Shown here: positions 20,682 through 39,543 of the stretch, piece after piece | Position numbering within the stretch: position 1 is the stretch's first letter | Layout: the number at the start of each line of letters is the position of its first letter | Assembly (NCBI GenBank): GCA_043775355.1 | Contig: JAYVSL010000172.1 | Coordinates: 1 to 61,198, forward strand | DNA from: Planctomycetota bacterium | GTDB taxonomy: Bacteria > Planctomycetota > UBA11346 | DNA length: 61,198 bases | Direction of reading: 5' to 3' | Translations under genes and position numbers: made by a program | The notes under the pieces: generated by a model | What the model saw: only the letters and a program-made list of their open reading frames with translations | What the model was told of the DNA's origin: nothing | The model's database searches: none

Positions 20682-20766
20682 ATCACTTAGTCACCAAGCT
20701 CGTGGCTTTGGTCTTCCTCCGCTGCCCCGTTCCTGCCCTTTAACAAATAGAAGCGGGCTGCGAGCC

Positions 20767-20856
20767 GCATCACATAGCGCGTAGCACATAGCGCGTAGCA
20801 CATAGCGCGCATCACATAGCGCGCATCACATAGCACATAGCGCGTAGCACATAGCG
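20767..20856. repeat. tandem array with about 14-bp period, about 6.5 copies of [CAT/TAG]CACATAGCGCG
   Basis: Read directly: CATCACATAGCGCG TAGCACATAGCGCG TAGCACATAGCGCG CATCACATAGCGCG CATCACATAG CACATAGCGCG TAGCACATAGCGCC. It abuts the transposase fragment. Confidence 0.85.
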
Positions 20857-20858
20857 CC

Positions 20859-21126
20859 GCGATATCCGCGGGAGAATGGCTACGCGGAACGCTTCGTTCG
20901 CTTGCTCAAAGAGAGCCTGCTGCGCAAGTGCCTCTTCCACAGCGAATCAGCGCTGCGGTCAGCGCTGTCTGAATTCCAAATGTATTTCAACAATGAACGA
21001 CCCCATCAAGGCATCGGCAATCGCACCGTGCTTGGTTCCAGCAAGGTGCCAACCGCCTGTAAAATCATGGAAACGTGCTCGGGCACTACATTGATGCCAT
21101 CGAATTTTTCGACGGACTGTGCATAG
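20859..21126 (+). mobile_element. 3' fragment of a DDE (rve / integrase-core) transposase gene
   Basis: The frame reads ...RENGYAERFVRLLKESLLRKCLFHSESALRSALSEFQMYFNNERPHQGIGNRTV..., which is the C-terminal rve signature (NG..ERF...lK.E ... YN.eRPHqglg). The catalytic N-terminal two thirds, the HTH and the inverted repeats are absent. Confidence 0.75.
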
Positions 21127-21458
21127 CAAAGCACGTAAGCGACCAACGTGGCGGGTCGGCGGCATGAAGCATTTCATCGAAATACACGGACGTGGTCACG
21201 GATTCCGTATGTGCATGTGCCACTCGCTGGCGGCGCTACCAAGCGGCACGAAGCCCCAGGTCATCGTTGTCGTACCATCATCCAGCGTGCTCAAGGTCCG
21301 CGTACGGCGCGCGGTGATCTGATCCAAATGGGCAGCGTGAATTCCATGCGGAACCGGGCATATTTTAAACTGCTCCTTGACGGAATTGAATTTCGCAAGG
21401 TCCGATAAACGCACGACGGCGATTTCCGCAGTCGGTTCTGTTCATTTCCGGAGCACCC

Positions 21459-22682: not shown

Positions 22683-22730
22683 CCCATGCGCCCCACACAC
22701 TATTCCCCATCGGATCGTCAAGGAACCCAC

Positions 22731-23231
22731 ATGAGTCTTAGACGCTCGTCCCACCGTTTGTCCCACCGTTTGTCCCACCGTTTGTCTGCTTGGCTGTTAA
22801 TGAGCGCTCTTTTGCCCGCTTCTGCGGCTGATTATGCGATTGTCGTCAACGCCGCGTCGCCTCTTACGGGACTTTCCTCTTCCGACATGAATCAGATCCT
22901 GAAGGTCGAAAAACAAAGCTGGGATGATGGCAGCAAAATCGTCCTGGTGATGCCCAAGAAGGGTTCCAAAGAAGAAGCCATTCTGTTGACCAAAGTCTAT
23001 CAAACCGACAGTGATGGTCTGACCAAATTCTGGACCGCCGTGGTCTATCAAAACAAGATCACCACGGCGCCAAAATCAGCCCCCGCGAAAGTCGCGCTCA
23101 AGCTCGTCGAGATCAAGGCTGAGGCCATCACGATTGTCGCCGTCGCCGATGTCCCCACTGGCGGCGCGCTCAAGGTGCTGACGCTTGATGGCAAGAAACC
23201 GGGCGACAGTGGCTACGCCCTTAGCGACTGA
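22731..23231 (+). CDS. short periplasmic PBP-like (PstS/phosphate-binding-like) protein
   Basis: The ATG at 22731 is preceded by AAGGA. The signal peptide contains three SHRL repeats. The mature part (YAIVVNAASPLTGLSSSDMNQILKVEKQSWDDG...) resembles the short substrate-binding-like proteins found next to porins and sensors. Confidence 0.65.
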   Translation: MSLRRSSHRLSHRLSHRLSAWLLMSALLPASAADYAIVVNAASPLTGLSSSDMNQILKVEKQSWDDGSKIVLVMPKKGSKEEAILLTKVYQTDSDGLTKFWTAVVYQNKITTAPKSAPAKVALKLVEIKAEAITIVAVADVPTGGALKVLTLDGKKPGDSGYALSD

Positions 23232-25257
23232 ACCCGACGCCAGCGCGACGACAGCCGGCACGGCCGGAGCGATTTCCCCCGCTCGGGTCGGCGGCCGGCG
23301 TTTTCCCGTGCGTCTCAAGATCGCGGTGGCATTGCTGCCGGCACTGTTGCCGTTGCTGGCGGTGGTGGCGGTCGGCTACTGGTCCGGGCGCGGCGCGGCG
23401 CTTACCACCAGCGCCGGCATCGCCGGGCTGATCGCCGACGCTGGCGGACAACAGCTCGGCTCGTTCCTGCTCGCCCGTCGACGGCAGGTCGAACAGTGGA
23501 CGCAGGACGACGTGTACGGCGCGGCCATCGCCTTCGATGCCGTGGGCGAACTGGGCAAGACCTTCACCACCATGCTTGAGCAGGATCACGGCTTTTCCGC
23601 GCTGATCCTCACCGACCCGACGGGCCAGGTGTTGCAGGTCGCAGGCAAGATTCCGCCCTCCGTTATTGGCAAGCCGTGCATGGAATGGCAGCAGCACCAT
23701 GCCGGCGCAGGTAAGCTTGACATCGTCATCACCAGCAGCGCGCTGCTTGGCGGCCGACGAACGCTGGTCTACTGCTTTGACGCTCGTAATGAGGACAAAG
23801 TCGTCGGCACCCTGCTTGCGTTTCTCGATCCCGGCGCGATCGAGCAGCAGGTCGCTGCGTTGTCGCGGCAACTGGCTGGGTATGGTCTTGCCAGCGGCGC
23901 GGGTCTGTTGCTCGACGGCGGTGAACACCAGGTTCTGGCCAGCACCGCAACCACTGCGACTGCGACTGCGACTGCGACTGCGACTGCGACTGCAGCTGCG
24001 ACTGCAGCCGATGCCGAACGCGCGGGACTCGCCTGGCTCGACGCGCAGCGGCCAAGCGGGAGCAGCGTGCTCAACCATCAGCGGCGATTGGTGAGTTTCG
24101 CCGGCATCGCCGATGCAGACTGGCGAGGCGCGACGCCGGTCGTGGCGTCGGCTCCGGCCGCGACGCCGGCGCGTCTCGGCTTGCTGGTGTTGGTGCCGGA
24201 GAGCGAACTGCTCACCGGCGTCCGCCAAGCCCTGTGGCTCAACCTGGCGCTGGCCGCAATCGGCAGCGCGGTGGTCGGCGTGCTGATCCTGATCGCCGCC
24301 GGACGCATCAGTCGCCCAATCAGCTCCACCGCCAAACTGTTGCAGGACATCGCCACCGGCGACGGCGACCTGACTCGTACCCTTGACCTCCGCTCGCGCG
24401 ATGAACTCGGCGACCTTGCCCACTGGTTCAATGCTTTCGTAACCAACCTGCGCGCGATCGTTGGCCGGGTCGGCACCACGGCGCAGGAGCTCGATCGCTC
24501 AGCCAACACGCTGACGGACAACGCCAACACCATGCTTGGCCATGCGCAGGATTCATCGCGTCAAACCGCGACCATGTCGGCCGACCTCGCGCGCGTCAGT
24601 CTGGAGGTCAATGCAGTCGCGCAGGCGATTAGCCAGATCGACCAGTCGATTACCGAGGTGGCCGCCAGCGCCGCCAGCGCCACTGGCGTGACCAGCGAGG
24701 CGGTCGCCGCCGTGGCCAAAGCCAACGCCACCATCGTCAGGCTCGACACCGCGAGCAGCCAAATCGACAAGGTGGTCAAACTGATCGCCACGGTCGCCGA
24801 CGAAACCAATCTGCTGGCGCTCAACGCCACCATCGAAGCCGCACGCGCCGGAGAAGCCGGCCGCGGCTTCGCGGTGGTGGCCTACAACGTCAAGGAACTG
24901 GCGAACACCACCAGTTCATCGACCGCCGAGATCACCGCCAAGGTCGAAGCGATCAAAACCGAGGTGCGGGAGGTGGTCGCAGAGATGGCCGGCATCCGCG
25001 CCATCATTGGACGCATCGACGGCATCAGCCGCACAATCGCCTCCGCGGCCGAAGAACAGTCGACCACCATGCGCGACATCAATGCCCGCCTGAGTGAGGC
25101 GGCGCAAGCCTCGGCGGGAGTGGTGCACAGCGTCGAAGAAGTAACCGGCTCAATCGCCGGCACCACCCTTGGCGCCCGTCAAACCCACACCTCAGCCGAC
25201 GCCCTCACCGGCATGGTCGGCGACCTACGAGCGCTGATCGGGAAATTCCGCTACTGA
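23185..25257 (+). CDS. methyl-accepting chemotaxis protein (2 TM, periplasmic sensor, HAMP, MA domain)
   Basis: HAMP region (RPISSTAKLLQDIATGDGDLTRTLDLRSRDELGDLAHWFN) and signalling hairpin ETNLLALNATIEAARAGEAGRGFAVVA. The true start is probably downstream of the overlap with the previous gene, for example GTG 23308 before TM1. GC3 is markedly higher than in the neighbours. Confidence 0.9.
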   Translation: MMARNRATVATPLATEPDASATTAGTAGAISPARVGGRRFPVRLKIAVALLPALLPLLAVVAVGYWSGRGAALTTSAGIAGLIADAGGQQLGSFLLARRRQVEQWTQDDVYGAAIAFDAVGELGKTFTTMLEQDHGFSALILTDPTGQVLQVAGKIPPSVIGKPCMEWQQHHAGAGKLDIVITSSALLGGRRTLVYCFDARNEDKVVGTLLAFLDPGAIEQQVAALSRQLAGYGLASGAGLLLDGGEHQVLASTATTATATATATATATAAATAADAERAGLAWLDAQRPSGSSVLNHQRRLVSFAGIADADWRGATPVVASAPAATPARLGLLVLVPESELLTGVRQALWLNLALAAIGSAVVGVLILIAAGRISRPISSTAKLLQDIATGDGDLTRTLDLRSRDELGDLAHWFNAFVTNLRAIVGRVGTTAQELDRSANTLTDNANTMLGHAQDSSRQTATMSADLARVSLEVNAVAQAISQIDQSITEVAASAASATGVTSEAVAAVAKANATIVRLDTASSQIDKVVKLIATVADETNLLALNATIEAARAGEAGRGFAVVAYNVKELANTTSSSTAEITAKVEAIKTEVREVVAEMAGIRAIIGRIDGISRTIASAAEEQSTTMRDINARLSEAAQASAGVVHSVEEVTGSIAGTTLGARQTHTSADALTGMVGDLRALIGKFRY

Positions 25258-25303
25258 CAAAATGGAAGCGTGGGCAGATGAATGAATGGGAAAGGCAGTG
25301 TGT

Positions 25304-26107
25304 TTAATTTTTATTCAGGCTCTTTGCGACTACCTCAAGCAGCGAAGTCGTTGTGAATGGTTTGGCCAAACGGGAAAACGACAACACGTCAGACTTGCAC
25401 TGCGTCAGATCGCCAGACATCACGATCAATGCGCTTTGCTGCGCCACTGACAGGTGCGAAAGTTGTTCGATGAAATGCTCGCCACTCATGGCGGGCATCA
25501 GCCAATCCACCAGGATCACGTCTGGGCAGGTGCGTTGTACGGCAGCTATCCCTTCGAGACCGCTGGAACATGCTTCGACCTCGGCTCCGGCTTCCTGCAA
25601 CATGACCACGATGATGTCGCGCAGCATCTCATTATCATCGATCACGAGGATGCGGCGCTGCTTCAAAGACTGCGCCAACTCGGGCACGGGCAGGCCTGAC
25701 TGCAGGTGCGGTACCTGGATTTCCTCCCGGTGAGCGAGGGGCAGACGAATGCGGAAAGTCGCGCCATGCCCGAGCATGCTTTCGACCTGGATAGTTCCGT
25801 GATGACGATGGATGCACGATTCGCACGTTGCCAGGCCAAGCCCCGTCCCTGCGATGTCCGGCTGACCACGCGTTGCACTCGCATAGACGCCCTTGGTCGA
25901 AAAGAAGGGATTGAAAATCTTCGGCAGGTCCTCGGGGTGGATGCCGCGACCGGTATCAGCAATGACGATCTCGACGTGATCCAGTTGGCTTGTGGCATTG
26001 AAGAGAACGCTGCGGACGGATACATAAAGGATGGCGTTGAAAAAATCTAAATGATGTGGGCACATGACCACGCTCCGTGGCCCCGGATGGCGTGGATTCG
26101 ACAGCAA
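25304..26107 (-). CDS. truncated hybrid histidine kinase: HATPase_c plus receiver only (probable gene remnant)
   Basis: ADTGRGIHPEDLPKIFNPFFSTKG...GTGLGLATCESCIHRHHGTIQVES (G1/F/G2 boxes) followed by REC (RILVIDDNEMLRD...VILVDWLMPAMSG). There is no HisKA/H-box or sensor, and no continuing frame upstream. Confidence 0.65.
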   Translation of the reverse strand: MLSNPRHPGPRSVVMCPHHLDFFNAILYVSVRSVLFNATSQLDHVEIVIADTGRGIHPEDLPKIFNPFFSTKGVYASATRGQPDIAGTGLGLATCESCIHRHHGTIQVESMLGHGATFRIRLPLAHREEIQVPHLQSGLPVPELAQSLKQRRILVIDDNEMLRDIIVVMLQEAGAEVEACSSGLEGIAAVQRTCPDVILVDWLMPAMSGEHFIEQLSHLSVAQQSALIVMSGDLTQCKSDVLSFSRLAKPFTTTSLLEVVAKSLNKN

Positions 26108-26415
26108 GGGGCCACGACAGCGTGTGCCTTCATCACCGTTTCCACGGCATCAAATCACCGAAGTCACGAAAAAATGCCGTCTACCAACCGCCCGAATGGC
26201 CGGTTGTCCGGCTATGTCCAACTCACCTCATGCCGAGGGTTTTTTCAGGAAAATCATAACCGGCTGGCCTGATTTTACTCCGCTGCGACTGATCCGAACG
26301 TGGCCTGATTTTACACCGCTACTTACAAGCTCAAAATGAACCTGAATTGCTTAGCGTCCCCGCTCAATTAATCGGTCATCTAGGCCTGCAATAATGTCCT
26401 GATCTGGTCGTGACA

Positions 26416-27189
26416 TTATTCGTCTTTCGGCGCGTACGGCAGTAATAACACCACGCGGCTATTGCCAATATGGGCGGGATTATCCATCGACGGAATGAAA
26501 TCGGCGCGACTGGTCACCTGACGGCACAAACCGGAGCTATAGCCGGCGTCTATAAGACCATCGTAAATTCCCTGCGCACGGCTCAGGCCAAGGTCCATCT
26601 TACGCGGTGCACCCACTTGTGAGGGACCTTTATCGATGTGACCAGTAATCACCAAAGCGCGACGCACGGTTGACAAAACATCCACTAACGACCGCAACAT
26701 GGCGGTGCCAGCTTCTGTGCGAACCGCGCTGCCAGGCATAAAGAAAACACCGCGTTGATCCTCAATCAAATCAATACGCAAGCCGCGTTCACTCAAAGCA
26801 ATTTTGACATTGCCACTGTGTTCCTTGAATGCTGGATCTGTGCGCCGACGTTCTTCCAACAGTAACTGCAGCGTACGTGCCCATTGGAAATCAATGTACT
26901 TCACCGTGAGGTCGTTTTCTTCTGCCTCTTCAGGCTGGGGCGGCGGCTTTCCATCCATCTGCAGCACATTCCGACTCGCAGCGAAATTTACTTTAAACGC
27001 ACCTGGGTTATTGAAGTAAGCGGCAATACCTTGCTTGGTATTCACGTCCAAGCCAATAATCCACATCACCAAAAAGAACGCCATCATCGCGGTCACCAGA
27101 TCCGCGTAAGCCAGCTTCCACGCGCCGCCATGATGACCATGTGCGTGTTTTTTCTTGCGAATAATGATGGGCGGTTGTGCGTCAGCCAT
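26416..27189 (-). CDS. motB: flagellar-type stator protein MotB
   Basis: GGAWKLAYADLVTAMMAFFLVMWIIG (plug/TM with the conserved proton-binding Asp). C-terminal OmpA-like block ITGHIDKGP...LGLSRAQGIYDGLIDAGY...NSRVVLLL. Confidence 0.88.
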   Translation of the reverse strand: MADAQPPIIIRKKKHAHGHHGGAWKLAYADLVTAMMAFFLVMWIIGLDVNTKQGIAAYFNNPGAFKVNFAASRNVLQMDGKPPPQPEEAEENDLTVKYIDFQWARTLQLLLEERRRTDPAFKEHSGNVKIALSERGLRIDLIEDQRGVFFMPGSAVRTEAGTAMLRSLVDVLSTVRRALVITGHIDKGPSQVGAPRKMDLGLSRAQGIYDGLIDAGYSSGLCRQVTSRADFIPSMDNPAHIGNSRVVLLLPYAPKDE

Positions 27190-27320
27190 GTCTTATCGCT
27201 CAGAAAGAAAAATGCCGCCATCGGCGAGCCCATAAAACCTAACGTCATCACGTTGATCAACGATGAACGAATAAGGCGAATTCCGCGCTCGTGATTCTTT
27301 AAGCTCTGGTTGTTGACGGT

Positions 27321-28184
27321 TCATTTCTTACCTCGCTCTTTAATCGCCTTATCCATTTCTGAGAACGTTGGGCGAACCGACGGATCAATATTCCGGCGAG
27401 CAAATTCGAGACTGCTTGATGGAGGATCACCACGTGCCCCACGCGCAATCGCGTGACGAATACAGGTCAAATACATGCCTTCCATGCGAATGCGTTGACT
27501 CAAACCCTTGACCAACGGCGACATCATCACGTAAGCAATCAACACGCCAAGAAAGGTTCCGACCAGGGCGTTACCAATAGCAGCACCGATTTCCGATGCC
27601 TCACCACCGATATGACCCATGGTGATAATAACGCCAAGCACGCAGGCAACGATGCCGATGGCCGGCATGCCGTCAGCGCTAACTTGGAGCGCATCAGGAA
27701 CTTGGTTTTCCTCAGCATGAACGGCATCCAAATCCTGCTCCATCATATCGGCGAGGTCATGTGGCTGAACACCACCGGTAACCAGAATTTTCATGGTATC
27801 ACAGAAAAACTCGACAGCGTGATGGTTGGCCATGAAGCTTTTATTTGCTGACAAAATGGTGCTTTTTTCTGGGTCTTCGATATGGCTTTCAATCGCCAGC
27901 AGACCATCGGTGCGCGCCAAGCTGAAAAGCTTGTAGATCATGATTAAGAGATCTTCGTATTCCTGCTTACCAAATTTTGCCGGTTTCATCAAATGCATAA
28001 TTTGAGCGATCGTTTGTTTCGTTAGCGCCATGCCATTCGAGCCAAGATACATACCAATACCAGCACCGATGATGACGATGTATTCCGTCCACGCGACGAC
28101 AAACACCATCATGCTGCCACCGTGCAATAGGTAGCCAGCAAAGGTACAAGCGAGTCCAAAAGCGATGCCGAAGAAAGTGAACAT
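27321..28184 (-). CDS. motA: flagellar-type stator protein MotA
   Basis: 287 aa, collinear with E. coli MotA. The Arg90/Glu98 equivalents are conserved (SLARTDGLLAIESHIEDPEKS), as are the Pro173 (DGMPAIGIV) and Pro222 (MSPLV) equivalents, and there are 4 TM helices. Confidence 0.93.
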   Translation of the reverse strand: MFTFFGIAFGLACTFAGYLLHGGSMMVFVVAWTEYIVIIGAGIGMYLGSNGMALTKQTIAQIMHLMKPAKFGKQEYEDLLIMIYKLFSLARTDGLLAIESHIEDPEKSTILSANKSFMANHHAVEFFCDTMKILVTGGVQPHDLADMMEQDLDAVHAEENQVPDALQVSADGMPAIGIVACVLGVIITMGHIGGEASEIGAAIGNALVGTFLGVLIAYVMMSPLVKGLSQRIRMEGMYLTCIRHAIARGARGDPPSSSLEFARRNIDPSVRPTFSEMDKAIKERGKK

Positions 28185-28303
28185 AGTTTAGGTCAAGGGG
28201 TGACGTGGAATCATACCACGGAAATAGCGAGTCGCAGGAACGAAGTTCTCTGTTCTCCGTAACGAAAAACGTAGCGTCCATGTGTTGCGAATAATCATTC
28301 CAT

Positions 28304-28675
28304 TCATCTCCGTTCGTCCAAAAAGTGTGCTGGCTGATGCTCAGTCACTGGCAAATAAGCACGCATGGCCATGTCCCCACGTTCTTCTTGTGCGCCCATT
28401 TCAATTTGGAGTTGGCGGTAGCGTGTCAGCTCTGCAGCACTGCTCGCTAAAAGCCTGGCCGTGCAGCGAGCCGTTTCGAGCAGCTGTTCACGAGCGTGTT
28501 TTTCCAGACCACTCAGCGCATCCGCTGTCGGCAATGACGCTAAAAGCTGGGACACTTCTTGAGAGAGACTTTCCGCACGCTCAAAATCGACGGTTTGCTC
28601 TTTAAAAAGCGCGGCCTGCTGACGAAGTAAATTCTGCACAGCTTCATGAAGCTCAATAATGTCGCTGATGTTCAT
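28304..28675 (-). CDS. small cytoplasmic all-helical protein (FlgN-like layout, unverified)
   Basis: 123 aa with no signal peptide and a heptad-like Leu/Gln/Glu pattern. Its start overlaps the upstream stop by 4 nt. Confidence 0.55.
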   Translation of the reverse strand: MNISDIIELHEAVQNLLRQQAALFKEQTVDFERAESLSQEVSQLLASLPTADALSGLEKHAREQLLETARCTARLLASSAAELTRYRQLQIEMGAQEERGDMAMRAYLPVTEHQPAHFLDERR

Positions 28676-29475
28676 GGGCCCACCGCTCCAGCGATATTCA
28701 GCCCCGCGAGTAAGCCGCGAGCAGCCCCAACCAATTCGCTGGTGGCATGATCTTGCGCCAAACGCTCGACCGCCGTGGTCGCTTCCGCTAAAAATTTCAT
28801 ACGTGCTTCGCCGGTCGCTTGGCGCGCTTTTTCAATTAAGAACCATGCTTTTAAATATCGGTAGCGCACTGGCTCACCATCACCGAGCTCGGCCACTTCC
28901 ACCAGCTCAAGTGCTGCAAATCCAGCCGCCACATCAGCGGCCGTCGGAGTCATCACAGCAGCAAGGTCATGGTAACATTCGGCAATGCGTAGTTGGTTGG
29001 TCGCAGCGAGAGACGAGCGTTGCAACGCTTGCGCCGCAGGTCGCGCGGCATCGAGCGTGTCGCGATGGTGCCCGATGACGCGTTCATCGTAGGTTTCCAG
29101 TGCACGTCGGAGATCGAGATGTGCTTGATCACGTTCTCGCAGTGGTTCGCCCAAAGCGGGATTGCTCGGTGGGCTGGTAGCTGGACGTAAATTCTGCCGC
29201 TGATCTAAAAGCTCCCGAATACGTTGGTCGCGTTCACGGACCAACGATTCCAAACGACGCTGCAGACGATCAGCGGCCGTCAACGTCGCTGGGTTTTCAA
29301 CCGTCGGCACCAACGGTTGAACACGCGGCGCCGGATCAAGTGGCGGCGAGACTTCGACGGTGAAAACGACTGACGTAACCATGAGCAGAATAAACGCGCG
29401 CACACGCCTCATTCGCGGCCCAGTAACTTCGCAGGCAGAAAAAATAAACGCGCAAACGGTGGCAATCATTTTCAC
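28672..29475 (-). CDS. secreted or membrane-anchored coiled-coil protein
   Basis: 267 aa. N-terminal hydrophobic segment (RAFILLMVTSVVFTV), a Pro-rich linker, then charged helical repeats (RLESLVRERDQRIRELLDQRQ). It is translationally coupled on both sides. Confidence 0.6.
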   Translation of the reverse strand: MKMIATVCAFIFSACEVTGPRMRRVRAFILLMVTSVVFTVEVSPPLDPAPRVQPLVPTVENPATLTAADRLQRRLESLVRERDQRIRELLDQRQNLRPATSPPSNPALGEPLRERDQAHLDLRRALETYDERVIGHHRDTLDAARPAAQALQRSSLAATNQLRIAECYHDLAAVMTPTAADVAAGFAALELVEVAELGDGEPVRYRYLKAWFLIEKARQATGEARMKFLAEATTAVERLAQDHATSELVGAARGLLAGLNIAGAVGP

Positions 29476-31457
29476 TTTGCCTCCCCATTGAATGCTTTAA
29501 TCGCTTCGCGTAAGCGGCCCTGGTCACGCAAATGACTGCCCAGTAGATTCGCTGCATAATCACGGTCGCGCAGCGAAAGTCCTGGGTCTTCCAAAAGCTC
29601 TCGTAGCGTGGTTTCACCAAGATCATTTTCGCCGCCAAGGATAGCGGCACGTGCTAATCCGAGTCGTGCGGCATGGAGTAAATCTTTCGGTGGACGTTCA
29701 GCGATGGTGCGTTCGTAATGATGAACCGCATCGGCGGCAGCGGCAGAGCGCACGCGACGATCGCGTTGGGCGCGGCGATAATCAGCTTGAGCAATATAGA
29801 ACAATGCTTTGGCTCGAACTGGGCCACTATAACCACCTAAGCGCCCTTCCAGCTCCCCCAACAATTGATCGAGCTGTAATTGCCCAGGTCGTTGATCGGC
29901 AACCGCATCGCTCTTTAGCAAATCCCATAACGCATTGACGGTATCGTCATCACGTTGCAGTTCCGCATAACAGCGGGCAATGTTAATCAGCAGTTCCGCA
30001 TCCAACGGTGACTCGGTAAAATCTTGACGTGCACGAAGAAATGCGAACAGCGCATGCACATGTTTGGGTGGCGTGGCTGCCAGGTGACATTGACCAATGC
30101 GATACGCTGAGGTGGCATAGATAATGGAATTTGCGTCGCCATCGGTCTTGCCATTTTTCCATCGGCGCTGCAGCTCAACGTAAGCTGGCAGCGCTTCAGC
30201 GCTACGATTTTCATGAAAGGCGCATTCTGCCAGGCGGAAAGAAAGAATGTCGTTCGCGCGTCCGCCAGACGCCGTCACCACCAGTTTCAGTTGCGTTTCT
30301 GCTTCGCGCCATCGAGCCGCTTCAAACAGCAAATCACCGAGGTTGAGGCGCGCCACGTGGACGCGCGCAGCGGCAGCAGGAACTTTAGTAAATTCTTCTA
30401 ATAAATTCTGCAACGTGTCGATCGCCGCATCGAGTGCGATCGCATCGTTCTTTGCCAATCCTTGTCGCCGTGCCGCTTCGGCTGCAGCCAGATAGATGTC
30501 TGGCAGATCTGGGTCGCCGACTTCGGCGCGTGAAATATAATTGAGGAAAACACCACGGGCATCCTGGAATTGATCGAGCGCCATCATGGCTTCGCCGACG
30601 CCACGAATGGCACGTCGTACCCACACTTGTACCGCCGCATCCGTGTCGCTGGCGTAGGCATCGGCCAAGCTGCTGAATTGCTTCATCGCCTCCAGCGGAT
30701 GACGAGCGGCGGCTTCGTTTGAGCCCAACAACCACAGCGCCTCGGCTCCTGCGGCATTATGGTTTTTACTGGCGGCATGGTGAAGCGCTCGACCAGCGAG
30801 ATCTTCTAATAGTTCACGATCGCGCGGTTGCAGCGCGCTGTCGAACACCACCAATAAACCATCTTTACCGCCGTCTTCGCGCCAAGCTAAACCAATCTGG
30901 CCAAGCAATCGATCGAGTGCTTCCGCCCACGGTACGTCTTTTAAATGCAGACTTACGGCGCGGCGAGTGGCGACGACTCCGGTATCGTCAATGGAGTGTC
31001 CCAACAACAGTGCCAATTCACGGTAAACCACTTCGGCAGCTTCGCGTTCGATGTTGGCACTCACCAGTGATTCGCCGCCAGCAGTAACTTGAATTGACAA
31101 CTTTTCTTCACCAAAACGAACGGAAAAACGACGGTTTGCTTCGCCTGCATGCGTGCCAACTTCCAACCCATGGTTGGGTCGAACGGCCGTCGGAGCCGTG
31201 GTTGTGTCATTGGTCGCCAGCGCCACACGCACGCGTTCAACAGCTCGGCGCAGCGCGCCGATATCGTCAATCAACGTTCCTTCACCAGGAGCTGGATTTT
31301 CGTTCGCTATTTTTTCAACGACTGCCGCTTTTTGCCCCAACTGCAGTGGCCGTGGTTGTGGCGGCAATGGCGGCGATGGCGGCGATGGCGGCGGGGTCTC
31401 AGCCGCCTGCATGAGCGAAAACAACGTGAACAACGGAACGATCACGGAAATACGCAT
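29472..31457 (-). CDS. periplasmic TPR-repeat protein with N-terminal STN/secretin-N0-like module
   Basis: Signal peptide MRISVIVPLFTLFSLMQAA plus a PSPPSPPLPPQP linker. The module ...VSLHLKDVPWAEALDRLLGQIGLAWREDGGKDGLLVVF resembles STN/PilQ-N0. More than 400 aa of Ala/Leu/Tyr TPR-like helices follow. Confidence 0.7.
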   Translation of the reverse strand: MRISVIVPLFTLFSLMQAAETPPPSPPSPPLPPQPRPLQLGQKAAVVEKIANENPAPGEGTLIDDIGALRRAVERVRVALATNDTTTAPTAVRPNHGLEVGTHAGEANRRFSVRFGEEKLSIQVTAGGESLVSANIEREAAEVVYRELALLLGHSIDDTGVVATRRAVSLHLKDVPWAEALDRLLGQIGLAWREDGGKDGLLVVFDSALQPRDRELLEDLAGRALHHAASKNHNAAGAEALWLLGSNEAAARHPLEAMKQFSSLADAYASDTDAAVQVWVRRAIRGVGEAMMALDQFQDARGVFLNYISRAEVGDPDLPDIYLAAAEAARRQGLAKNDAIALDAAIDTLQNLLEEFTKVPAAAARVHVARLNLGDLLFEAARWREAETQLKLVVTASGGRANDILSFRLAECAFHENRSAEALPAYVELQRRWKNGKTDGDANSIIYATSAYRIGQCHLAATPPKHVHALFAFLRARQDFTESPLDAELLINIARCYAELQRDDDTVNALWDLLKSDAVADQRPGQLQLDQLLGELEGRLGGYSGPVRAKALFYIAQADYRRAQRDRRVRSAAAADAVHHYERTIAERPPKDLLHAARLGLARAAILGGENDLGETTLRELLEDPGLSLRDRDYAANLLGSHLRDQGRLREAIKAFNGEAK

Positions 31458-31459
31458 GT

Positions 31460-33589
31460 TTAATGACCTCCGTGAGCGTCATGCGTCGCGGCTGACGCGG
31501 CGGGCTTGTGATCGTCATGACTTGCCGGAGCCGCATGACTATCAGCGGCCTCATGGCCGTTGGCTGCTGCATGTTTGCTGGCGGTTGCTCGTTCGTGACC
31601 TTGCTGTGACGCCGTGCCCAACATACGCCCCAAGGTCAGATACGCATCTTGAACGGCTTGCTGATTGCGCACCACTTCATCACCAGGACGCGTAAGTCCG
31701 TTGCGATCACGCGGGGCCAGATAACTGTCTTCGTTCGCCAGCAAACGATACACCTGCCGAGTAGCAGCGGGCATGTCACCTAATTCGGTGAGACATACCG
31801 CGTAATCGAGAAAAATTCGCGGATCATCAAATAGACCATGACCAGTTTCTGCCAAAGTAGCAAATTCATCCGCCGCTTGATGAAAAGCACCTTTCGCTCT
31901 GAAATGGCGCCCTAATGCCAAAGCAATTTCCGCTTCGTGTCCGGGATACCGAGCTTTCAGTCGCCCCATAAACAGGACGCCCTTGGCCACCTCCGTCGCA
32001 TCCTGCGCCGCCAACTGCGCGACCGCAGCTTTATAATCATTAGCGAAACTATTGCTGGGCGTCAGTGCCGCTTCGCGCTGAGTCTTCAGCTCACTAGACA
32101 AACCGTTAATGGCGTTCACCACCATGCCCAGCGTGGTGGCACAGATAGCGAGAAATAATACGGCGGCGACTAACAGCCAACGAGCACCTTTTAATTCCGC
32201 CGGAGCCATCACTGGCACGCCCAGCGTTATGGTAGGGCCACCTCTGGTTGCCGCAGAATTACCGCTGATTAAACCGCTCGCTGGCATGGCATCCATGGTC
32301 GCTTTGGCATTACCAGCCTGTTCCAATAATTTATCGATTTCGCCTTCGTGTTTCGCCAGCGCGTCGCTAATTTTTTGAGTATTGGGTGCGCCAGTGGCAT
32401 TGGCGAGTTGCTTAACCAGCGCATCGATATCGCCCTGATCAATCATCGGCGCTTCGCCATGCTCACTGATCACACCAACCTGACGATCAACCAGCGCATC
32501 TAAATCATCCGCACTCAATGCCAACGTCGGCCCAGGCCCTGACGGCATCACCTCCATCATGGGAGCAATGATGGTCGCCGCACTCGCGTTTGACGTTGTC
32601 GTGCCTGGTTTTTGTGATTGCGCCGCTACTGCCACGGCTGTCGTTGGTACGCTTGGAACCGCACTCGCGGTTTGTTTTGACGTGCCTGGCTTGGCGGTGG
32701 TTTTAGCTCCTAAATCTGCCAACAATTTATCGATGTCATCCTGACCGAGCGGACCACTCTGATTATCGTCTGGATTCGCTTGTGCCTTCGCATTGGCCGC
32801 TTCCTGAACCGAATCCAACATCTCTGTAATCGATTCGCGTTTCTTACGCTTGGTCGATCCCATCGCTGGCGCAGGGCTCGGCGTCGTTTGATTCAGCAAG
32901 GCGTCTATCGCATCTTGATCGAGCGCTTTTCCAGGCGCTGACGCGGCCGCTTTGTTCGCCGTTGGAGCAGGCGACTGCACCTGATTGATCAACGCATCAA
33001 TGTCATCTTGTCCCAGCGAGCCAGAAGACGATGCCGCCGCCTTCGGCGCTGCGGCAACCGCTTTGGACACTGGCGCACTGGCCTGTACCTGATTGATCAG
33101 CGCATCAATATCATCTTGTCCCAGCGAGCCAGAAGACGATGCCGCCGCCTTCGGCGCTGCGGCAACCGCTTTGGCCACTGGCGCACTGGCCTGCACCTGA
33201 TTGATCAGCGCATCGATTTCATCTTGCCCCATGGCACCGGAGGCCGCAGCCACGGGCGCAGGTTTCGGCGCTGCGGCAACCGCTTTGGCCACTGGCGCAC
33301 TGGCCTGTACCTGATTGATCAGCGCATCGATTTCATCTTGCCCCATGGCGCCAGAGGGCGCTGCCACCGGTTTGGCCACCACTGGAACCGCCTGAGTGGT
33401 TGGTGCACTCGCCTGCGTTAGGTTAATCAGTGCATCAATATCGTCTTGTCCCAACGCTCCCTGAGGCCCTGCTGGCGCCTTCACCGGTGTGGTGCCTTGC
33501 GACGGCGCAGGCGACGGAGCCGCCCCCGAAGCCTGATTGATCAGCGCGTCGATGTCATCTTGCGACATGGAGTTAGGATCGTTTGCCAT
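31460..33589 (-). CDS. single-pass membrane protein: cytoplasmic array of about 10 FliM-type EIDAL (CheY-binding-like) peptides, one TM helix, periplasmic TPR-like domain, His-rich tail
   Basis: The motif xQD[DE]IDALI/LN occurs at residues 9, 47, 83, 121, 157, 193, 224 and 282, with degenerate copies at 359, 384 and 415. The TM helix is WLLVAAVLFLAICATTLGMVV (about residues 470-492) after KGAR. The stop lies 2 nt from the next start. Confidence 0.8.
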   Translation of the reverse strand: MANDPNSMSQDDIDALINQASGAAPSPAPSQGTTPVKAPAGPQGALGQDDIDALINLTQASAPTTQAVPVVAKPVAAPSGAMGQDEIDALINQVQASAPVAKAVAAAPKPAPVAAASGAMGQDEIDALINQVQASAPVAKAVAAAPKAAASSSGSLGQDDIDALINQVQASAPVSKAVAAAPKAAASSSGSLGQDDIDALINQVQSPAPTANKAAASAPGKALDQDAIDALLNQTTPSPAPAMGSTKRKKRESITEMLDSVQEAANAKAQANPDDNQSGPLGQDDIDKLLADLGAKTTAKPGTSKQTASAVPSVPTTAVAVAAQSQKPGTTTSNASAATIIAPMMEVMPSGPGPTLALSADDLDALVDRQVGVISEHGEAPMIDQGDIDALVKQLANATGAPNTQKISDALAKHEGEIDKLLEQAGNAKATMDAMPASGLISGNSAATRGGPTITLGVPVMAPAELKGARWLLVAAVLFLAICATTLGMVVNAINGLSSELKTQREAALTPSNSFANDYKAAVAQLAAQDATEVAKGVLFMGRLKARYPGHEAEIALALGRHFRAKGAFHQAADEFATLAETGHGLFDDPRIFLDYAVCLTELGDMPAATRQVYRLLANEDSYLAPRDRNGLTRPGDEVVRNQQAVQDAYLTLGRMLGTASQQGHERATASKHAAANGHEAADSHAAPASHDDHKPAASAATHDAHGGH
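33003..33446. repeat. in-frame tandem repeats of 108/108/114/108 bp inside the EIDAL-array gene
   Basis: Units start at 33003, 33111, 33219 and 33333 (TCATCTTG...). Units 1 and 2 differ at only about 4 of 108 positions. Confidence 0.9.
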
Positions 33590-35212: not shown

Positions 35213-35432
35213 GCTTGCCGACTCTCTGATGGTCAATGCTCCCTCATTCACCAGAGCCAATGCTGCGTCTCACTCGTGCGCTGATGCCGTGGTTTCGTGA
35301 AGATCAATTTATTTGCTACCGACGACTTAACGCAGCGTAATTTCTGCGGATAGTTGGGTGCTCGGGAATCCGGGCGCCACGGGTACATTTTTTACACTTG
35401 CCGTCGGGTCAGCGATGTGAACATCGTGTGGC

Positions 35433-36839
35433 ATGCCTACCCGCGCTCTCGTTTTCCTGGTCGGTTGGTGCCTGATTGGTTCCTTTACCGCGCTGAACGC
35501 GGGCGAGGTTTTGGACCTCGGCAGCGGCGCCACCATCGAGTTGAGCGCCGTACCGGCCGGCACCGCAACGCTCGGATCGCTGCCGGACGAAGCGGGGCGC
35601 GACAGCGACGAGGATCGTCGCATCGTGCGCATCAGCGAAGACTTCCTCATCAGCAGCACGCCAGTGACGCGCAGCCAGTTCGCCCGCTTCGTCGCCAGCA
35701 CGGTCTATCGCACCGAAGCGGAGATCGGTACTTCCGGCGGCTGGGGATTGTCCGGCGGAGCCTTAGTGCAGCGTAAAGATTTCACTTGGCGCAATCCGGG
35801 TTTTCCGCAGGACGATCGCCATCCCGTGGTGTTGGTGACCTGGGCTGACGCGCAGGCGTTCTGCGGTTGGGCGAGCAAACTGACGCGCCGCTCCGTCACC
35901 CTGCCGACCGAAGCCGAATGGGAGTACGCCGCGCGTGGTGGCAATGACGGCACTTGGAATGGCCCCGCGCTGTCGGCCCACGGCGGGACGCGTGCGGTGG
36001 GTGAGGATCCCGCCAATCCACTCGGCCTGCATGATCTTCTCGGTCACGTGAATCAATGGTGTCAGGATTGGTATCAGCCGATGTTGTCCGCCGACGCGGT
36101 GGATCCGCGTATCGATCGTGCTCCTTCGGGCGACACCGCTCGTCGTTGTTTGCGCGGTGGCTCGTTCCTTCAGACCACGCGTCAGCGTGTTGCTGCCCGC
36201 TGGCGCAACAGTCCTGGGACGCGCAACGCGGATAACGGTTTTCGTATCGTCGTACGCGCTGCTCCCGTGGTCGCAGCGGCTACCACGTTGTCACGGCCAG
36301 TGCCGGTGTTGCCGGAGGTCGAAGCCAGCGCGCCGGTGACTCCACAGCCCAACCAGGCTCTGCCGGCGATGCCGCCGATATCGTTCGTGCACGATCAGCC
36401 GACGGATTCCGGCATGCCAACGCTGATGGTGTGGTTCTTCATTATATTTTTTGGCATTGTGGTGGTGAAAATTATTAAGGCGGTGATCACGTCTCTCGGA
36501 TCATCGGACGGTGGCTCGCGCCAAGCGCCCCAACGCCAAGCGCCTCATCAAAAACCTGATCTACGCGATGACGGATTCTGGCTCGACACGCGTGCGTACC
36601 GTCGTGGAGCGCGCCTGCGCTACAAAGTCCGGCGCGATCGCGCGTGGGCGGAAGAGCAGATCGACATCACGCCGGATGCGCCACGTCAGTTCATCTACAC
36701 CGGCTTGCGACCAGAGGAGGTGGTGATCCTCGGCGTGACGGGTGGTACGATGGCACGGTCGGTGCGATCTGATCGGTCAGTGCGTGACAATGACGATTCG
36801 TCGCCGGCGTCGACCATTGGTTTCCCGTCGGCGTATTGA
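35433..36839 (+). CDS. FGE-sulfatase (SUMF1/DUF323) domain protein with TM segment and unknown C-terminal domain
   Basis: Signal peptide, then PVTRSQFARFV...HPVVLVTWADAQAFCGWASK...LPTEAEWEYAARGG...RCLRGGSF, which are typical FGE-sulfatase blocks. A TM helix (MVWFFIIFFGIVVVKII) is followed by a basic tail. Confidence 0.8.
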   Translation: MPTRALVFLVGWCLIGSFTALNAGEVLDLGSGATIELSAVPAGTATLGSLPDEAGRDSDEDRRIVRISEDFLISSTPVTRSQFARFVASTVYRTEAEIGTSGGWGLSGGALVQRKDFTWRNPGFPQDDRHPVVLVTWADAQAFCGWASKLTRRSVTLPTEAEWEYAARGGNDGTWNGPALSAHGGTRAVGEDPANPLGLHDLLGHVNQWCQDWYQPMLSADAVDPRIDRAPSGDTARRCLRGGSFLQTTRQRVAARWRNSPGTRNADNGFRIVVRAAPVVAAATTLSRPVPVLPEVEASAPVTPQPNQALPAMPPISFVHDQPTDSGMPTLMVWFFIIFFGIVVVKIIKAVITSLGSSDGGSRQAPQRQAPHQKPDLRDDGFWLDTRAYRRGARLRYKVRRDRAWAEEQIDITPDAPRQFIYTGLRPEEVVILGVTGGTMARSVRSDRSVRDNDDSSPASTIGFPSAY

Positions 36840-36843
36840 CCTG

Positions 36844-39543
36844 ATGGCCCTGGGAGACGCCGCCTCAGCCGCGAGAGATCTCGCGGTCATTATTCTGCCG
36901 GGCGAACATCGCGCGATGCAGCGCACTCGCCGTGCGGTGTACGCCCACGGTTTGACGTGTTGCGAGGCGGAGCACGCGCCGATTGGCAGCGGGTGGTGCT
37001 GGGTGCTGCGTGCTGGCTGTTGGCCGTTATCAGTGCCGCGCCCGCAGGCGAGTGCCAGTGGACGAGCGACGGCACTGATCGGCCTCGTCATCCCAGCAGA
37101 ACCCGACGCGCAACGAGATCGCTCTGCTGCCAAATGGGATGAGTGGTGCCGTTTTTCCGGCGGTGATGCAGATGAGGTCGCGCTTCCTGGCATGCCGGCG
37201 TCTGTCCTGCTCGATCCCCGTTTGGCTGATCAGTGCCGGCAATTGATCGCTGCCGGCGCGACAGTGAGCACATCAATAGACAGGATTCTGAACGATCCGA
37301 CCGTGCGCCGCATTCGTTGGAGCGGGGCCGATGTGGGCGAAGACGAACGCGTGCGCGTGGTGCAGGTCATCACCAGCCTGCAGCGCGGCGGCGCTGAGCG
37401 TTTGGCGCTCGCTCTGCATCAGGCCGTCCCGCGTACGCACGTGGCCATGCACCTCATTGTCGCGGGGGATCCCGCGCGCAGTGCGTTCCCGTTACCGGAT
37501 GACGCGTACACCTGTGCCGATGCCGGTCCACGTCCTGCGCGCATGATGGAAGCCGCGTTGATGGCCTGTCGCTTGGGTGCCGACGTGGTCCACGCGCATC
37601 TGCTCGCGGCCGACGATGTTGCCGCGTTCGCCGCGCGTGAGGTGCCGTTACTGATCACCGTTCACAACGCCAAGCCCGGATGGCCAGAGCGCATGACAAC
37701 GGTACGCGCGCCATGCTTGCTGGTGGCCTGCAGTCGTCGCGTGGAAGTCGATCTTGCTGAGCACTTGCCACAGCTGCCGCGCCGCACGGTGTGGAACGGC
37801 ATCGACCCTGGAGTGACGGAGCCGTCGCCGCAACGTCAGCGCGATGGTCAGGCGCTGCGTAAGCGCTGGAAGATTCCAACGGATGCGGTGGTGCTCATCG
37901 CGTTGGCCAACCCTCGGGCGCAGAAACGCCTGGAACTGTTGCCCGCCATGCTTCGTCCATTGCAACAGCAGATCGATCGGCCAGTGCATGTACTCCTCGC
38001 TGGTGAAGCGGGTTCCGGTCCTGGTGCGAATGAAGCGGAGTTGCTCTTCACTACCGCTGTCTCTGCCCACGGCGTCGGCGAGCAGGTTCACCGCCTTGGC
38101 ATGATCACGGATGTGGGCGCGACGTTGGCCGCTGCTGATATGCTGGTGTCGCCCAGTGCGTGGGAAGGTTTGAGCCTCGCTCATCTGGAAGCGCTCGCCG
38201 CCGGAATCCCGGTAATCACCAGCGACGTGGGCGGTGCAGCAGAGGTGGCGTCACGCCACGATCAGGTGCACGTGCTGCCGGTAGACGCCGATACCGCAGC
38301 GTGGGTACACACGTTGGCGTCTGTGACGCGTTCGTTACCGCCACGCGAAAAGCGTTTGGACGCGGCGTTCACCATCACCGCGATGGCGCGCGGATATGCA
38401 CGCCTGTACCCGCGTGCCGCAGCGCTGGCGCGCCCCGCGACGGCGCCGAAGGGACTGTGGCTGGTGAGCAACAACCTGAGTGTTGGTGGTGCTCAAAGCA
38501 GCGCGCGTCGTCTGTTGCTCCATCTGCATGGCGCCGGCATTCCTGTGCGCTGCGCATTGTTGCAGGAACAGGTGGCCATGCCCACGCCTGGTCGGCAGTC
38601 GTTGCTCGCTGCGGGAATACCGGTCCTCGTGCTGCCCACGCCGGATGAACTGGATGCCGATAGCGCCGTGGCGCGTCTAGCGCAGGCGATCGAAGCAGAT
38701 CCGCCCCAAGCCGTCCTGCTGTGGAATGTGATGCCCAAGTACAAAGTGCTGCTCGGTGAGGTGGTGCTGAATACGCCGCTGTGGGATGTCAGTCCGGGCG
38801 AGATGAACTTCTCTTCGTTGGAGCGCTTGTTCCGTCAGTTGCCCAGCGATCTGCCGCTGCGCGATGTGCGCGACTATGGGACACGCCTCGCTGGAGCGAT
38901 CGTGAAATTCGGCGACGAAGCAGCGGTTGCGACGGCGACCTTCGGCGTGCCGGTCAGCGTGATTCCCAATGGCGTCCCGCTCAGCGAGGTTGCTCGCACA
39001 CCGCGCTCATCGGGTCCGTTGGTGTTCGGCACGGCGACGCGACTGTCGCCGGACAAACGCCTGGAGGATCTCATCGATGCCCTGCGTGTGGCGGCGCCTC
39101 GTTTACCGCTATGGGAATTCCTGATCGCGGGCGGCCTGGATGGCGACCACGCCTATGTCCATCGGCTACAGGCGGCGTGTGTTGGTCTTCCCATCCGCTT
39201 CGTCGGCGAGTGCGAAAACCATCAGACATTTCTCGCCGACCTCGACGTCTTCGTCCTGATCGCCGAACCGGCGGGCTGCCCCAACGCCAGCCTGGAAGCC
39301 ATGGCCTGCGGCCTACCGGTGGTGGCGACCGCTGTGGGCGGCATGGCGGAGCAGATCGAATCCGGGGTTAGTGGCTTGTTGGTTCCGCCGCGCGATACGC
39401 AGGCGTTGGCTGACGCGCTGGTGCTGATTGCCAATGATCCGCAGCGCCGTCAACGCTGGGGAAAGGCGGCGCGAGAACGGATCGCCGATCGGTTCAGCGT
39501 CGCACGAATGGCCGACGATTATCGGCGCATCTGCTTGCGCTGA
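36844..39543 (+). CDS. tandem double GT4-family glycosyltransferase
   Basis: The in-frame ATG at 36844 lies 5 nt after the upstream stop. There are two GT-B units: VVQVITSLQRGGAERL...SAWEGLSLAHLEALAAGIPVITSDVGG and LWLVSNNLSVGGAQSS...EPAGCPNASLEAMACGLPVVATAVGG. The gene is high in GC. Confidence 0.8.
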   Translation: MALGDAASAARDLAVIILPGEHRAMQRTRRAVYAHGLTCCEAEHAPIGSGWCWVLRAGCWPLSVPRPQASASGRATALIGLVIPAEPDAQRDRSAAKWDEWCRFSGGDADEVALPGMPASVLLDPRLADQCRQLIAAGATVSTSIDRILNDPTVRRIRWSGADVGEDERVRVVQVITSLQRGGAERLALALHQAVPRTHVAMHLIVAGDPARSAFPLPDDAYTCADAGPRPARMMEAALMACRLGADVVHAHLLAADDVAAFAAREVPLLITVHNAKPGWPERMTTVRAPCLLVACSRRVEVDLAEHLPQLPRRTVWNGIDPGVTEPSPQRQRDGQALRKRWKIPTDAVVLIALANPRAQKRLELLPAMLRPLQQQIDRPVHVLLAGEAGSGPGANEAELLFTTAVSAHGVGEQVHRLGMITDVGATLAAADMLVSPSAWEGLSLAHLEALAAGIPVITSDVGGAAEVASRHDQVHVLPVDADTAAWVHTLASVTRSLPPREKRLDAAFTITAMARGYARLYPRAAALARPATAPKGLWLVSNNLSVGGAQSSARRLLLHLHGAGIPVRCALLQEQVAMPTPGRQSLLAAGIPVLVLPTPDELDADSAVARLAQAIEADPPQAVLLWNVMPKYKVLLGEVVLNTPLWDVSPGEMNFSSLERLFRQLPSDLPLRDVRDYGTRLAGAIVKFGDEAAVATATFGVPVSVIPNGVPLSEVARTPRSSGPLVFGTATRLSPDKRLEDLIDALRVAAPRLPLWEFLIAGGLDGDHAYVHRLQAACVGLPIRFVGECENHQTFLADLDVFVLIAEPAGCPNASLEAMACGLPVVATAVGGMAEQIESGVSGLLVPPRDTQALADALVLIANDPQRRQRWGKAARERIADRFSVARMADDYRRICLR

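Follow-up and report, generated by a model that had tools for sequence, protein, structure and literature searches.

In described flagellar motors, the N-terminus of the switch protein FliM binds CheY, and FlhG also binds FliM/FliN via the FliM N-terminus. Each FliM (or FliY) subunit of the C-ring is thought to offer one such peptide, through which CheY and FlhG act on the motor. On the stator side of the motor, FliL and the Campylobacter proteins PflA and PflB scaffold MotB, and periplasmic tetratricopeptide repeat (TPR) stator scaffolds are known in that organism; FliL encircles the stator units, and MotX/MotY and the spirochaete collar protein FlcA are also periplasmic stator scaffolds. The hub proteins HubP, FimV and PodJ are bitopic and recruit clients through a long, repetitive, acidic and disordered cytoplasmic region; PodJ has its N-terminus inside the cell (N-in) and a periplasmic TPR domain, and HubP helps to localize FlhG. 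Here we analyze a 61,198-nucleotide (nt) contig of a Planctomycetota bacterium (JAYVSL010000172.1, positions 1 to 61,198; hereafter the window), in which six minus-strand open reading frames (ORFs) spanning 26416-33589 encode four uncharacterized proteins, g1 to g4, followed by the stator subunits MotA and MotB. The first, g1, is a bitopic protein carrying 11 copies of a peptide of the FliM N-terminus type (the EIDAL motif), and comparison with other Planctomycetota loci provides good support for g1-g4 as a real, conserved and uncharacterized envelope cassette.

The founding member of the cassette, g1 (31460-33589, minus strand), encodes a predicted bitopic inner-membrane protein of 709 aa. 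Its EIDAL array (32306-33574, minus strand; residues 6-428) lies in a disordered, Ala/Pro/Ser-rich tail. The 11 motifs, of which eight are strict, follow the pattern L-G-Q-D-D-I-D-A-L-I-N-Q and extend from residue 8, where the first begins, to residue 424, all of them N-terminal of the sole transmembrane (TM) helix. A first-pass annotation of the window had proposed about 10 peptides of CheY-docking type in this protein, and both the number and the match to the FliM N-terminal motif proved sound. A six-frame translation of the window contains nine strict motifs, eight of which are those of g1, compared to 0.02 per composition-matched shuffle. Four of the EIDAL units are encoded by a tandem repeat of 108 nt at 32975-33345 (3.4 copies, 90% match). 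Close relatives appear to differ in the number of peptides in the array, since g1 lengths of 709, 746 and 679-682 aa occur among the window, a contig 96% identical to it (L001) and P0002-P0004.

The array is followed by a TM helix (32114-32182, minus strand; residues ~470-492 by hydropathy, within a helix at 466-506 in the AlphaFold2 model) and then by ~215 further residues. Because g1 has no signal peptide and K467 and R470 precede the TM helix, we infer an N-in topology with a cytoplasmic tail of ~460 residues and a periplasmic C-terminal part, which contains a three-TPR-like domain (31562-32047, minus strand; residues 515-676). Over most of this domain, which is modeled as all-helical, the predicted local distance difference test score (pLDDT) exceeds 90, and its best Foldseek matches were generic small TPR proteins, namely PcrH, SycD and the TPR domain of YbgF (E ~5e-4). 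In the array, each motif is modeled as a short helix (block-mean pLDDT ~70-84) between linkers scoring below 50. No Pfam or NCBIfam family matched g1, which hence lacks the CheC-like middle and SPOA (FliMN_C) domains. The protein closes with a His/Ala-rich stretch (residues 677-709, 31463-31561) that ends in G-G-H or G-G-H-H in most family members; for this conserved end, metal binding and sorting are possibilities.

The g1 family comprises ~97 homologues, and all that any source names are labeled Planctomycetota or Planctomycetes. Each member has 3-11 motifs, always N-terminal of a single TM helix, and the alignment shows invariant Q, I and D in the motif and variable linkers. The core of the first motif lies at about residue 10-12 in most full-length members, as in FliM, and the family consensus, G-P-L-G-Q-D-D-I-D-A-L-L, agrees with the CheY-binding FliM motif.

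Comparison of 27 Planctomycetota loci, taken from different species-level genomes or metagenome contigs, revealed g1-g2-g3 in identical order at all 27, with g4 next wherever it was recognizable, so that the grouping of the four upstream genes noticed in the window proved to be a conserved unit. What lies behind g4 differs among loci: motA-motB at six (the window, L011, L012, L015, L013 and L032), a soluble PAS-HisKA-HATPase kinase at 12 and neither at six, the remaining three being unreadable. Thus g1-g4 beside motAB recurs in five other loci, down to 45% identity in g1, but the idea of the cassette as a dedicated set of MotAB accessory genes did not hold, since motAB is not adjacent at 18 of the 24 loci with a readable downstream side. 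In a neighbor-joining tree of g2, the motAB-linked loci form one clade, within which MotA falls no lower than 85% identity, and the kinase-linked state occupies the deepest branches; because this tree was midpoint-rooted, we infer rather than observe the polarity of the two states. The stator pair had also been called an orphan. Its isolation from other flagellar genes is real, but it is the norm in this group rather than a peculiarity of the window, since two metagenome-assembled genomes (MAGs) with kinase-type cassettes (L033 and L034) have motAB by itself on a different contig, free of neighboring flagellar genes. The window MotA is 56-57% identical to the stand-alone MotA of cassette-bearing MAGs, and the window motAB is probably the orthologue of this stand-alone pair, having moved behind the cassette once.

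The organization of the six genes was as first described, with the strand, coordinates and spacing all borne out by an ORF check. A gap of 2 nt separates g1 from g2, a GTGA overlap joins g2 to g3 and an ATGA overlap joins g3 to g4; motA is separated from g4 by 119 nt and from motB by 131 nt. The latter two intervals are filled exactly, with ATGA overlaps, by small ORFs (39 aa and 43 aa) that some pipelines call as genes; we rejected them as genes because the peptides are not conserved in L011, L012, L015 and L013.

Several features indicate that motAB is an ordinary flagellar-type stator pair, an assignment we regard as well supported by sequence comparison. MotA (27321-28184, minus strand; 287 aa) matched MotA_N (PF20560, 67 bits) and MotA_ExbB (PF01618, 49 bits) above their cutoffs and TIGR03818 (MotA1) over its full length with 289.6 bits, slightly under the cutoff of 303.8. 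Its residues R91, E99, P174 and P223 correspond to E. coli R90, E98, P173 and P222 and are invariant in an alignment of E. coli MotA with three planctomycete MotA proteins, upholding the claim that the rotor-interacting Arg/Glu pair and both conserved prolines are kept. MotB (26416-27189, minus strand) contains the plug (MotB_plug, 64 bits), the proton-binding Asp predicted for it, which is Asp30, invariant in the alignment and equivalent to E. coli Asp32, and a probable OmpA-like C-terminal domain. This last assignment has support at the residue level, as MotB keeps GH.D ... L..RA, including the Arg-Ala, in a MAFFT alignment with E. coli and aligns to the C-terminal domain of Salmonella MotB (E = 7e-7), but the Pfam score of 20.4 bits is below the threshold of 27.2. 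A conserved non-coding motif (TTCCGTGGTATGAT, 28210-28223, minus strand) lies upstream of motA, its end 25 nt from the ATG. Across the linked clade the motif takes the form YCCGTGGTAnnCT, ~25-30 nt upstream of the start; the CCGTGGTAnnCT motif was found in six of six motAB-linked species, was absent upstream of two stand-alone motA genes and resembles an extended -10 element (TGnTAnnnT). The motA-motB gaps of L012 (6987-7151) and L015 (14043-14200) contain hairpin inserts with long inverted repeats, for example (GATGTCC)n ... (GGACATC)n, that are similar to elements of the repetitive extragenic palindrome or miniature inverted-repeat transposable element type.

The proteins encoded between g1 and motA include two likely periplasmic partners of g1. 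The first, g2 (29472-31457, minus strand; 661 aa), is exported and consists of a signal peptide, a Pro-rich linker, STN-like residues at 161-197 and a long TPR region, in which TPR_16, TPR_6 and TPR_2 matched weakly, each under its cutoff. The STN-like module proposed for g2 is recognizable but borderline (27.9 bits compared to a Pfam cutoff of 28.4); weak STN matches reappear in g2 orthologues, and g2 itself is present at every locus examined. A weak match of g2 to YbgF (NCBIfam) reached 29.6 bits against a cutoff of 90.1. The second, g3 (28672-29475, minus strand; 267 aa from a GTG start), is an exported, helical protein of ~250 aa belonging to no known family, and an alignment of 24 orthologues showed a single invariant Cys and an N-terminal hydrophobic signal segment. 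Its start is ambiguous between the GTG at 29475 and the internal Met22 (MRRVRAFILL...), where the orthologues align; a start at Met22 would leave a 59-nt gap after g2 in place of the overlap. By comparison, g4 (28304-28675, minus strand; 123 aa) is a small cytoplasmic helical protein in which no signal peptide, TM segment, PDB match or Pfam match was detected, and 16 aligned orthologues share a C-terminal R-A-Y ... R-F-I-D motif. When profiles of g2, g3 and g4 were run against the whole set of PDB sequences, the matches were only noise or designed TPR proteins.

An exhaustive HMMER search with the g1 profile against 1.84 billion representative proteins revealed that multi-EIDAL tails extend well beyond the cassette. 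About 58 representatives matched the C-terminal domain of g1 as well, and many others matched the repeat region alone, in 3-7 stretches. The first-pass annotation had considered such a tail unprecedented, a claim that does not stand given similar tails on FliL-domain proteins, on FliN and on a second TPR family, although a limited search of the open-access literature found no description of multi-copy EIDAL proteins. One family (type B, 13 representatives, from other phyla) has 7-15 motifs, a TM helix and, in addition, a FliL domain; the Pfam FliL threshold is exceeded by three of its members, and in PDB the family profile matched FliL alone. In a Desulfobacterales MAG, the type B gene lies within a flagellar cluster, right after flhA-flhF-flhG-fliA and before fliK-flgF-flgG. 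In addition, one FliN protein carries 10 motifs ahead of its FliN C-terminal domain. The FliL-domain proteins, one of them encoded inside a flagellar cluster, thus provide independent support for the proposal that FliM-type peptides can reside on a stator-side protein. The gene order in the Desulfobacterales cluster (L040, 10543-11332) is the type B gene, an unannotated 100-aa gene, a DUF6115 gene and then fliK.

The second TPR family (type A, 16 representatives) combines 2-14 motifs by pattern, mostly at least six, with a TM helix and a ~680-aa TPR domain that is conserved. In two unrelated genomes, the type A gene is followed by genes for a ~155-aa protein, a PAS kinase and a sigma-54 response regulator. 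At the one locus compared, the PAS kinase shares, across its full length, 32% identity with the kinase of the g1 cassette; the signaling pair is best matched by AtoS/AtoC, not at equivalog level, and reaches 324 bits for FlgR against a cutoff of 750. The resemblance does not extend to the other proteins: hhalign showed no relationship between the type A TPR domain and g2 or between the small downstream protein and g4, and a HMMER comparison of the type A profile with the g1, g2 and g3 families gave no matches. Because multi-copy peptide arrays occur both on the motor proteins FliL and FliN and on bitopic TPR proteins accompanied by a PAS kinase, the array is, as judged from sequence, a recurrent module.

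We propose that two units have been joined in the window. Unit 1 would be a vertically conserved four-gene envelope cassette specific to Planctomycetota, and Unit 2 the usual stator pair of the lineage, motAB, placed behind g4 in one clade, at the position where the PAS kinase sits elsewhere. In this model, g1-g3 would form a complex spanning the periplasm, and the cytoplasmic array of g1 would act as a multivalent, membrane-tethered capture site for a phosphorylated receiver protein (the regulator of the cassette where present, otherwise a CheY-type protein) or for FlhG, a MinD-type ATPase. Capture would couple an envelope structure to cytoplasmic signaling, and in the clade of the window the complex would work at or beside the flagellar motor, near the stator units, as FliL and PflA/PflB do. 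CheY and FlhG appear equally possible as the binder of the array. The persistence of the motAB linkage in this clade suggests the motor-adjacent role, and we favor a connection to the motor because of the FliL and FliN parallels and the long life of that linkage. Taken as a whole, a receiver or FlhG dock on an envelope complex that is motor-proximal in the clade of the window is the explanation we put forward, tentatively and at somewhat less than even chances. What the first-pass annotation observed is confirmed, and its interpretation is partly supported.

A number of observations weigh against this proposal. Outside the motAB clade the cassette never adjoins flagellar structural genes, the nearby flagellar hints there being FliW-CsrA ~8-9 kb upstream of g1 in L009 and a methyl-accepting chemotaxis protein (MCP) gene in L007. 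The window lacks the regulator and kinase of the cassette, and the response regulator, histidine kinase and CheX genes at 57-61 kb are unrelated to them beyond generic domains. The motif upstream of motA is similar to an extended -10 element, so motAB may be transcribed from a separate promoter as well; the spacing between the two stator genes varies (6-165 nt), and in L012 and L015 it includes unrelated hairpin inserts. Finally, g1-g3 showed no detectable homology to PflA/B, MotX/Y, FlcA or FliL in searches with Pfam, NCBIfam and PDB profiles and in the Foldseek search of the g1 domain.

Analysis of the genes surrounding the cassette at other loci showed that signaling genes are its most frequent companions. 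A response regulator precedes g1 at 17 of the 23 loci with a readable upstream side and is then followed by, or fused to, a domain of ~98 aa, the fusion into one protein being found in one clade. The regulator family is discrete, comprising 84 proteins before a drop from 110 to 65 bits, which is near the size of the g1 family. Its AlphaFold2 model (pLDDT 89) gave LvrC of Leptospira, a Rec domain joined to a Bergerat-fold anti-sigma domain, as the best Foldseek match. Since the Rec domain dominates the Foldseek score and the output region had no sequence match in PDB or Pfam, we assign an anti-sigma-like output to the modeled regulator tentatively. The cassette kinase is a soluble PAS kinase of the AtoS/NtrB class. 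A 305-aa gene upstream of g1 in L039 was considered as a fused regulator and rejected.

These neighbors raise the possibility that the cassette is purely a signaling device, in which g1-g3 would act as a trans-envelope sensor that controls a sigma factor via the regulator, a STAS-like partner and the PAS kinase. The EIDAL array would then sequester the regulator at the membrane, and the position of motAB would be a neutral rearrangement in one clade with no physical link to the motor. A signaling device is favored by the dominance of two-component neighbors and the lack of flagellar genes near most cassettes; the pair is the commonest neighbor and branches deeply on the midpoint-rooted tree. 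Consistent with sigma factor control, the regulator model resembles LvrC, an anti-sigma regulator, an extracytoplasmic function (ECF) sigma factor follows g4 in L009, and g2 carries an STN-like module, STN being the signaling domain of FecA-type transducers. The conserved motif upstream of motA likewise fits a stator operon with independent expression. Yet the subclade of the window has kept the array, and in its largest form in the family (9-11 motifs), despite the disappearance of the regulator and kinase genes from the locus, and the motAB linkage has outlasted deep divergence. Moreover, FliL and FliN proteins carry the same array too, and both are components of the motor; neither a FecR nor an anti-sigma domain was detected in g1. 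On balance, we regard a pure signaling device as possible but rather unlikely.

A polar landmark or hub is a more doubtful explanation. Here g1 would be an analogue of HubP, FimV and PodJ, anchored by its TPR domain together with g2 and g3, and its peptides would recruit FlhG or other clients to set the number and position of flagella in budding, dimorphic planctomycetes. The binding of FlhG via the FliM N-terminus, the role of HubP in localizing FlhG and the placement of a FliL-type multi-EIDAL gene directly after flhF-flhG-fliA are all consistent with such a function, as is the architecture shared with these hubs, in which a bitopic protein has a cytoplasmic region that is long, repetitive and acidic. 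However, no flhF or flhG was found near any g1 locus examined, g1 has no LysM or other peptidoglycan-binding domain, and the conserved neighbors of the cassette are a response regulator and a kinase rather than ATPases of the ParA/MinD type.

The alternative offered by the first-pass annotation, a non-flagellar envelope machine built from g1-g3 and powered by MotAB in the style of Agl-Glt or Tol-Pal, is in our view very improbable. The periplasmic TPR-rich proteins and the weak YbgF match of g2 do recall Tol-Pal, and the 61 kb of the window contain no flagellar structural genes; however, MotA is of the flagellar MotA1 type with the rotor-contact pair (E. coli R90/E98) kept, is probably orthologous to the stand-alone MotA of cassette-bearing MAGs, and most cassettes have no motor genes beside them. 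A Zorya-like anti-phage system, consisting of a MotAB-like pair with accessory genes, has as its sole support a weak match between ZorB and the TM/plug segment of MotB (16.6-18 bits, where NCBIfam ZorB1 has a curated cutoff of 400) and is effectively refuted by the PADLOC and NCBIfam scores, as there is no ZorA match, the 287-aa MotA lacks a ZorA tail and scores 289.6 bits against flagellar MotA1, and g1-g4 have no PADLOC match.

Elsewhere in the window, the reported absence of fliG/fliM/fliN, flg, flh and cheA/W/Y genes was reproduced among the ORFs scanned (at least 150 aa, plus a few gaps). Two genes absent from the earlier account are an MCP gene at 23185-25257 and a CheX-domain gene at 60588-61193. 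The latter, a gene of the CheY-phosphatase type in a window otherwise without cheA/W/Y, belongs to a minus-strand cluster (57297-61193) that encodes the CheX-domain protein (201 aa), a HisKA/HATPase kinase (291 aa), a Rec protein (283 aa), whose C-terminal ~150 aa have no assignment, and a hybrid kinase (533 aa). We considered this cluster as a relocated two-component pair of the cassette and rejected it, the similarity being confined to generic Rec and HisKA/HATPase domains.

Relative to the 96%-identical contig L001, the window contains strain-specific insertions at 20509-26416 and 35216-40566. The first (5.9 kb) holds a porin-like gene, a 181-aa ORF, the MCP gene and a truncated HATPase-REC ORF, and the second encodes an FGE-sulfatase-domain protein and a 933-aa double glycosyltransferase. 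G+C content at third codon positions is 0.67-0.78 in the insertions, 0.49-0.55 in g1-g4 and motAB and ~0.5-0.6 in neighboring genes; the value above that of the neighboring genes suggests that both insertions were acquired horizontally. The MCP gene and the truncated ORF beside motB were considered as conserved context and rejected, since both lie within an insertion lacking in L001. The truncated ORF (25304-26107, minus strand) starts within HATPase_c (profile position 35), lacks HisKA and continues into a Rec domain, and thus looks like a 5'-truncated hybrid histidine kinase at the insertion edge. Two copies of a 20-nt direct repeat, TGGCCTGATTTTACNCCGCT, lie 36 nt apart at 26265-26320, just downstream of motB at the insertion junction. 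In the linked clade, motB is followed by a gene for a membrane protein of ~170 aa (MTFMEW.ELLSYLVTV...) with no Pfam match (19983-20681, minus strand, in the window; 7755-8207 in L013; 12038-12556 in L032; 11878-12381 in L001); in the window, the 5.9-kb insertion stands between motB and the gene of this type. Within the MCP gene, a (Thr-Ala)n low-complexity run at 23900-24060, a dinucleotide-like repeat in the DNA, gives rise to long spurious ORFs on the opposite strand. Other genes include an over-long ORF (50861-52411, plus strand; 516 aa) for a PilM-type protein, similar to type IV pilus assembly ATPases, that has no further pil genes next to it, and Ser/Thr protein kinases at 54817-56391 (minus strand), with a weak N-terminal DUF4388 match, and at 9043-11382 (plus strand). 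No Rfam family was found in the whole window, and scans for promoters and terminators returned counts at chance level.

The broader significance of these findings lies in the peptide itself, which occurs 3 to ~20 times on membrane proteins whose other end is periplasmic and, in one family, is FliL. Tandem arrays of FliM-type peptides might represent a widespread, undescribed module that tethers CheY-like receivers or FlhG to stator-side or periplasmic scaffolds (FliL, two bitopic TPR families and FliN), a generalization that we consider speculative and rather improbable as it stands. If it is correct, motors or motor-proximal envelope complexes would gain a second site of signal input or assembly control besides the FliM peptide, and the planctomycete g1-g4/motAB operon would be one instance. 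Arrays that bind receivers or FlhG could serve, at the stator ring or on an envelope scaffold, as sinks of high avidity or as sites of recruitment, which bears on the coupling among stator recruitment, the number and placement of motors, and chemotaxis signals, on the regulation of non-model motors and on the nature of the flagellar apparatus of Planctomycetota, which to our knowledge is almost unstudied. Docking to the array is directly testable with a 14-residue peptide, GALGQDDIDALINQ, and purified proteins. The joining of the cassette to motAB hints at an undescribed wiring of phospho-signals to envelope or motor structures. The element first regarded as unprecedented proves to be one case of a broader and apparently undescribed module, making it less singular and more general. 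The mechanism aside, the analysis adds three unannotated protein families (g1, g3 and g4) and a conserved operon in ~100 uncultured planctomycetes.

Comparison with known systems shows that the cassette combines features found separately elsewhere. With the EIDAL peptide of FliM, also present in FliY and some FliN proteins, g1 shares the consensus L-S/G-Q-x-E/D-I-D-A-L-L, a first copy at the extreme N-terminus on what is predicted to be the cytoplasmic side and a predicted short helix. In contrast to FliM, g1 has 11 copies rather than one, and the carrier is a bitopic TPR protein rather than a switch protein of the CheC-like or SPOA kind. The likeness of the accessory proteins to MotX/MotY and PflA/PflB had been proposed as one of kind, and in kind it holds, also for FlcA, in that exported TPR-rich proteins are encoded with stator genes or required for stator units; homology was not found in PDB profile searches, and unlike these scaffolds the cassette is linked to motAB in one clade alone and has its own two-component pair.

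On the signaling side, the regulator upstream of g1 recalls the LvrB-LvrC pathway and partner-switching modules, having a Rec domain, an LvrC-like output and a small alpha/beta domain next to it or fused, although the output lacks a sequence match and the regulator gene is absent from the window. The type A TPR family, followed by a PAS kinase and a sigma-54 regulator, is similar to FlgS/FlgR, FlrB/FlrC and FleS/FleR; the cassette kinase shares the AtoS/NtrB-like class with the kinases of such pairs, but the regulator of the g1 family is not of NtrC type. As for FecA/FecR, Pfam and NCBIfam searches of g1-g4 detected no FecR or TonB-dependent receptor domain.

The remaining parallels are with FliL and with hub proteins. 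Like FliL, g1 is predicted to be N-in with one TM helix and a periplasmic domain, and it is linked to motAB in this clade; with the FliL-domain proteins of other phyla it shares the multi-EIDAL tail itself. It differs from FliL in that its periplasmic domain is a TPR module, with no match to FliL (PF03748). Like HubP, FimV and PodJ, g1 is bitopic with a long, repetitive, acidic and disordered cytoplasmic tail, and the N-in orientation with a periplasmic TPR domain is that of PodJ. Unlike in these hub proteins, no LysM or peptidoglycan-binding domain is present, and the repeats are a defined FliM-type peptide. By analogy, the closest functional counterparts of the cassette would be the EIDAL-tailed FliL proteins and hub proteins such as HubP and PodJ.

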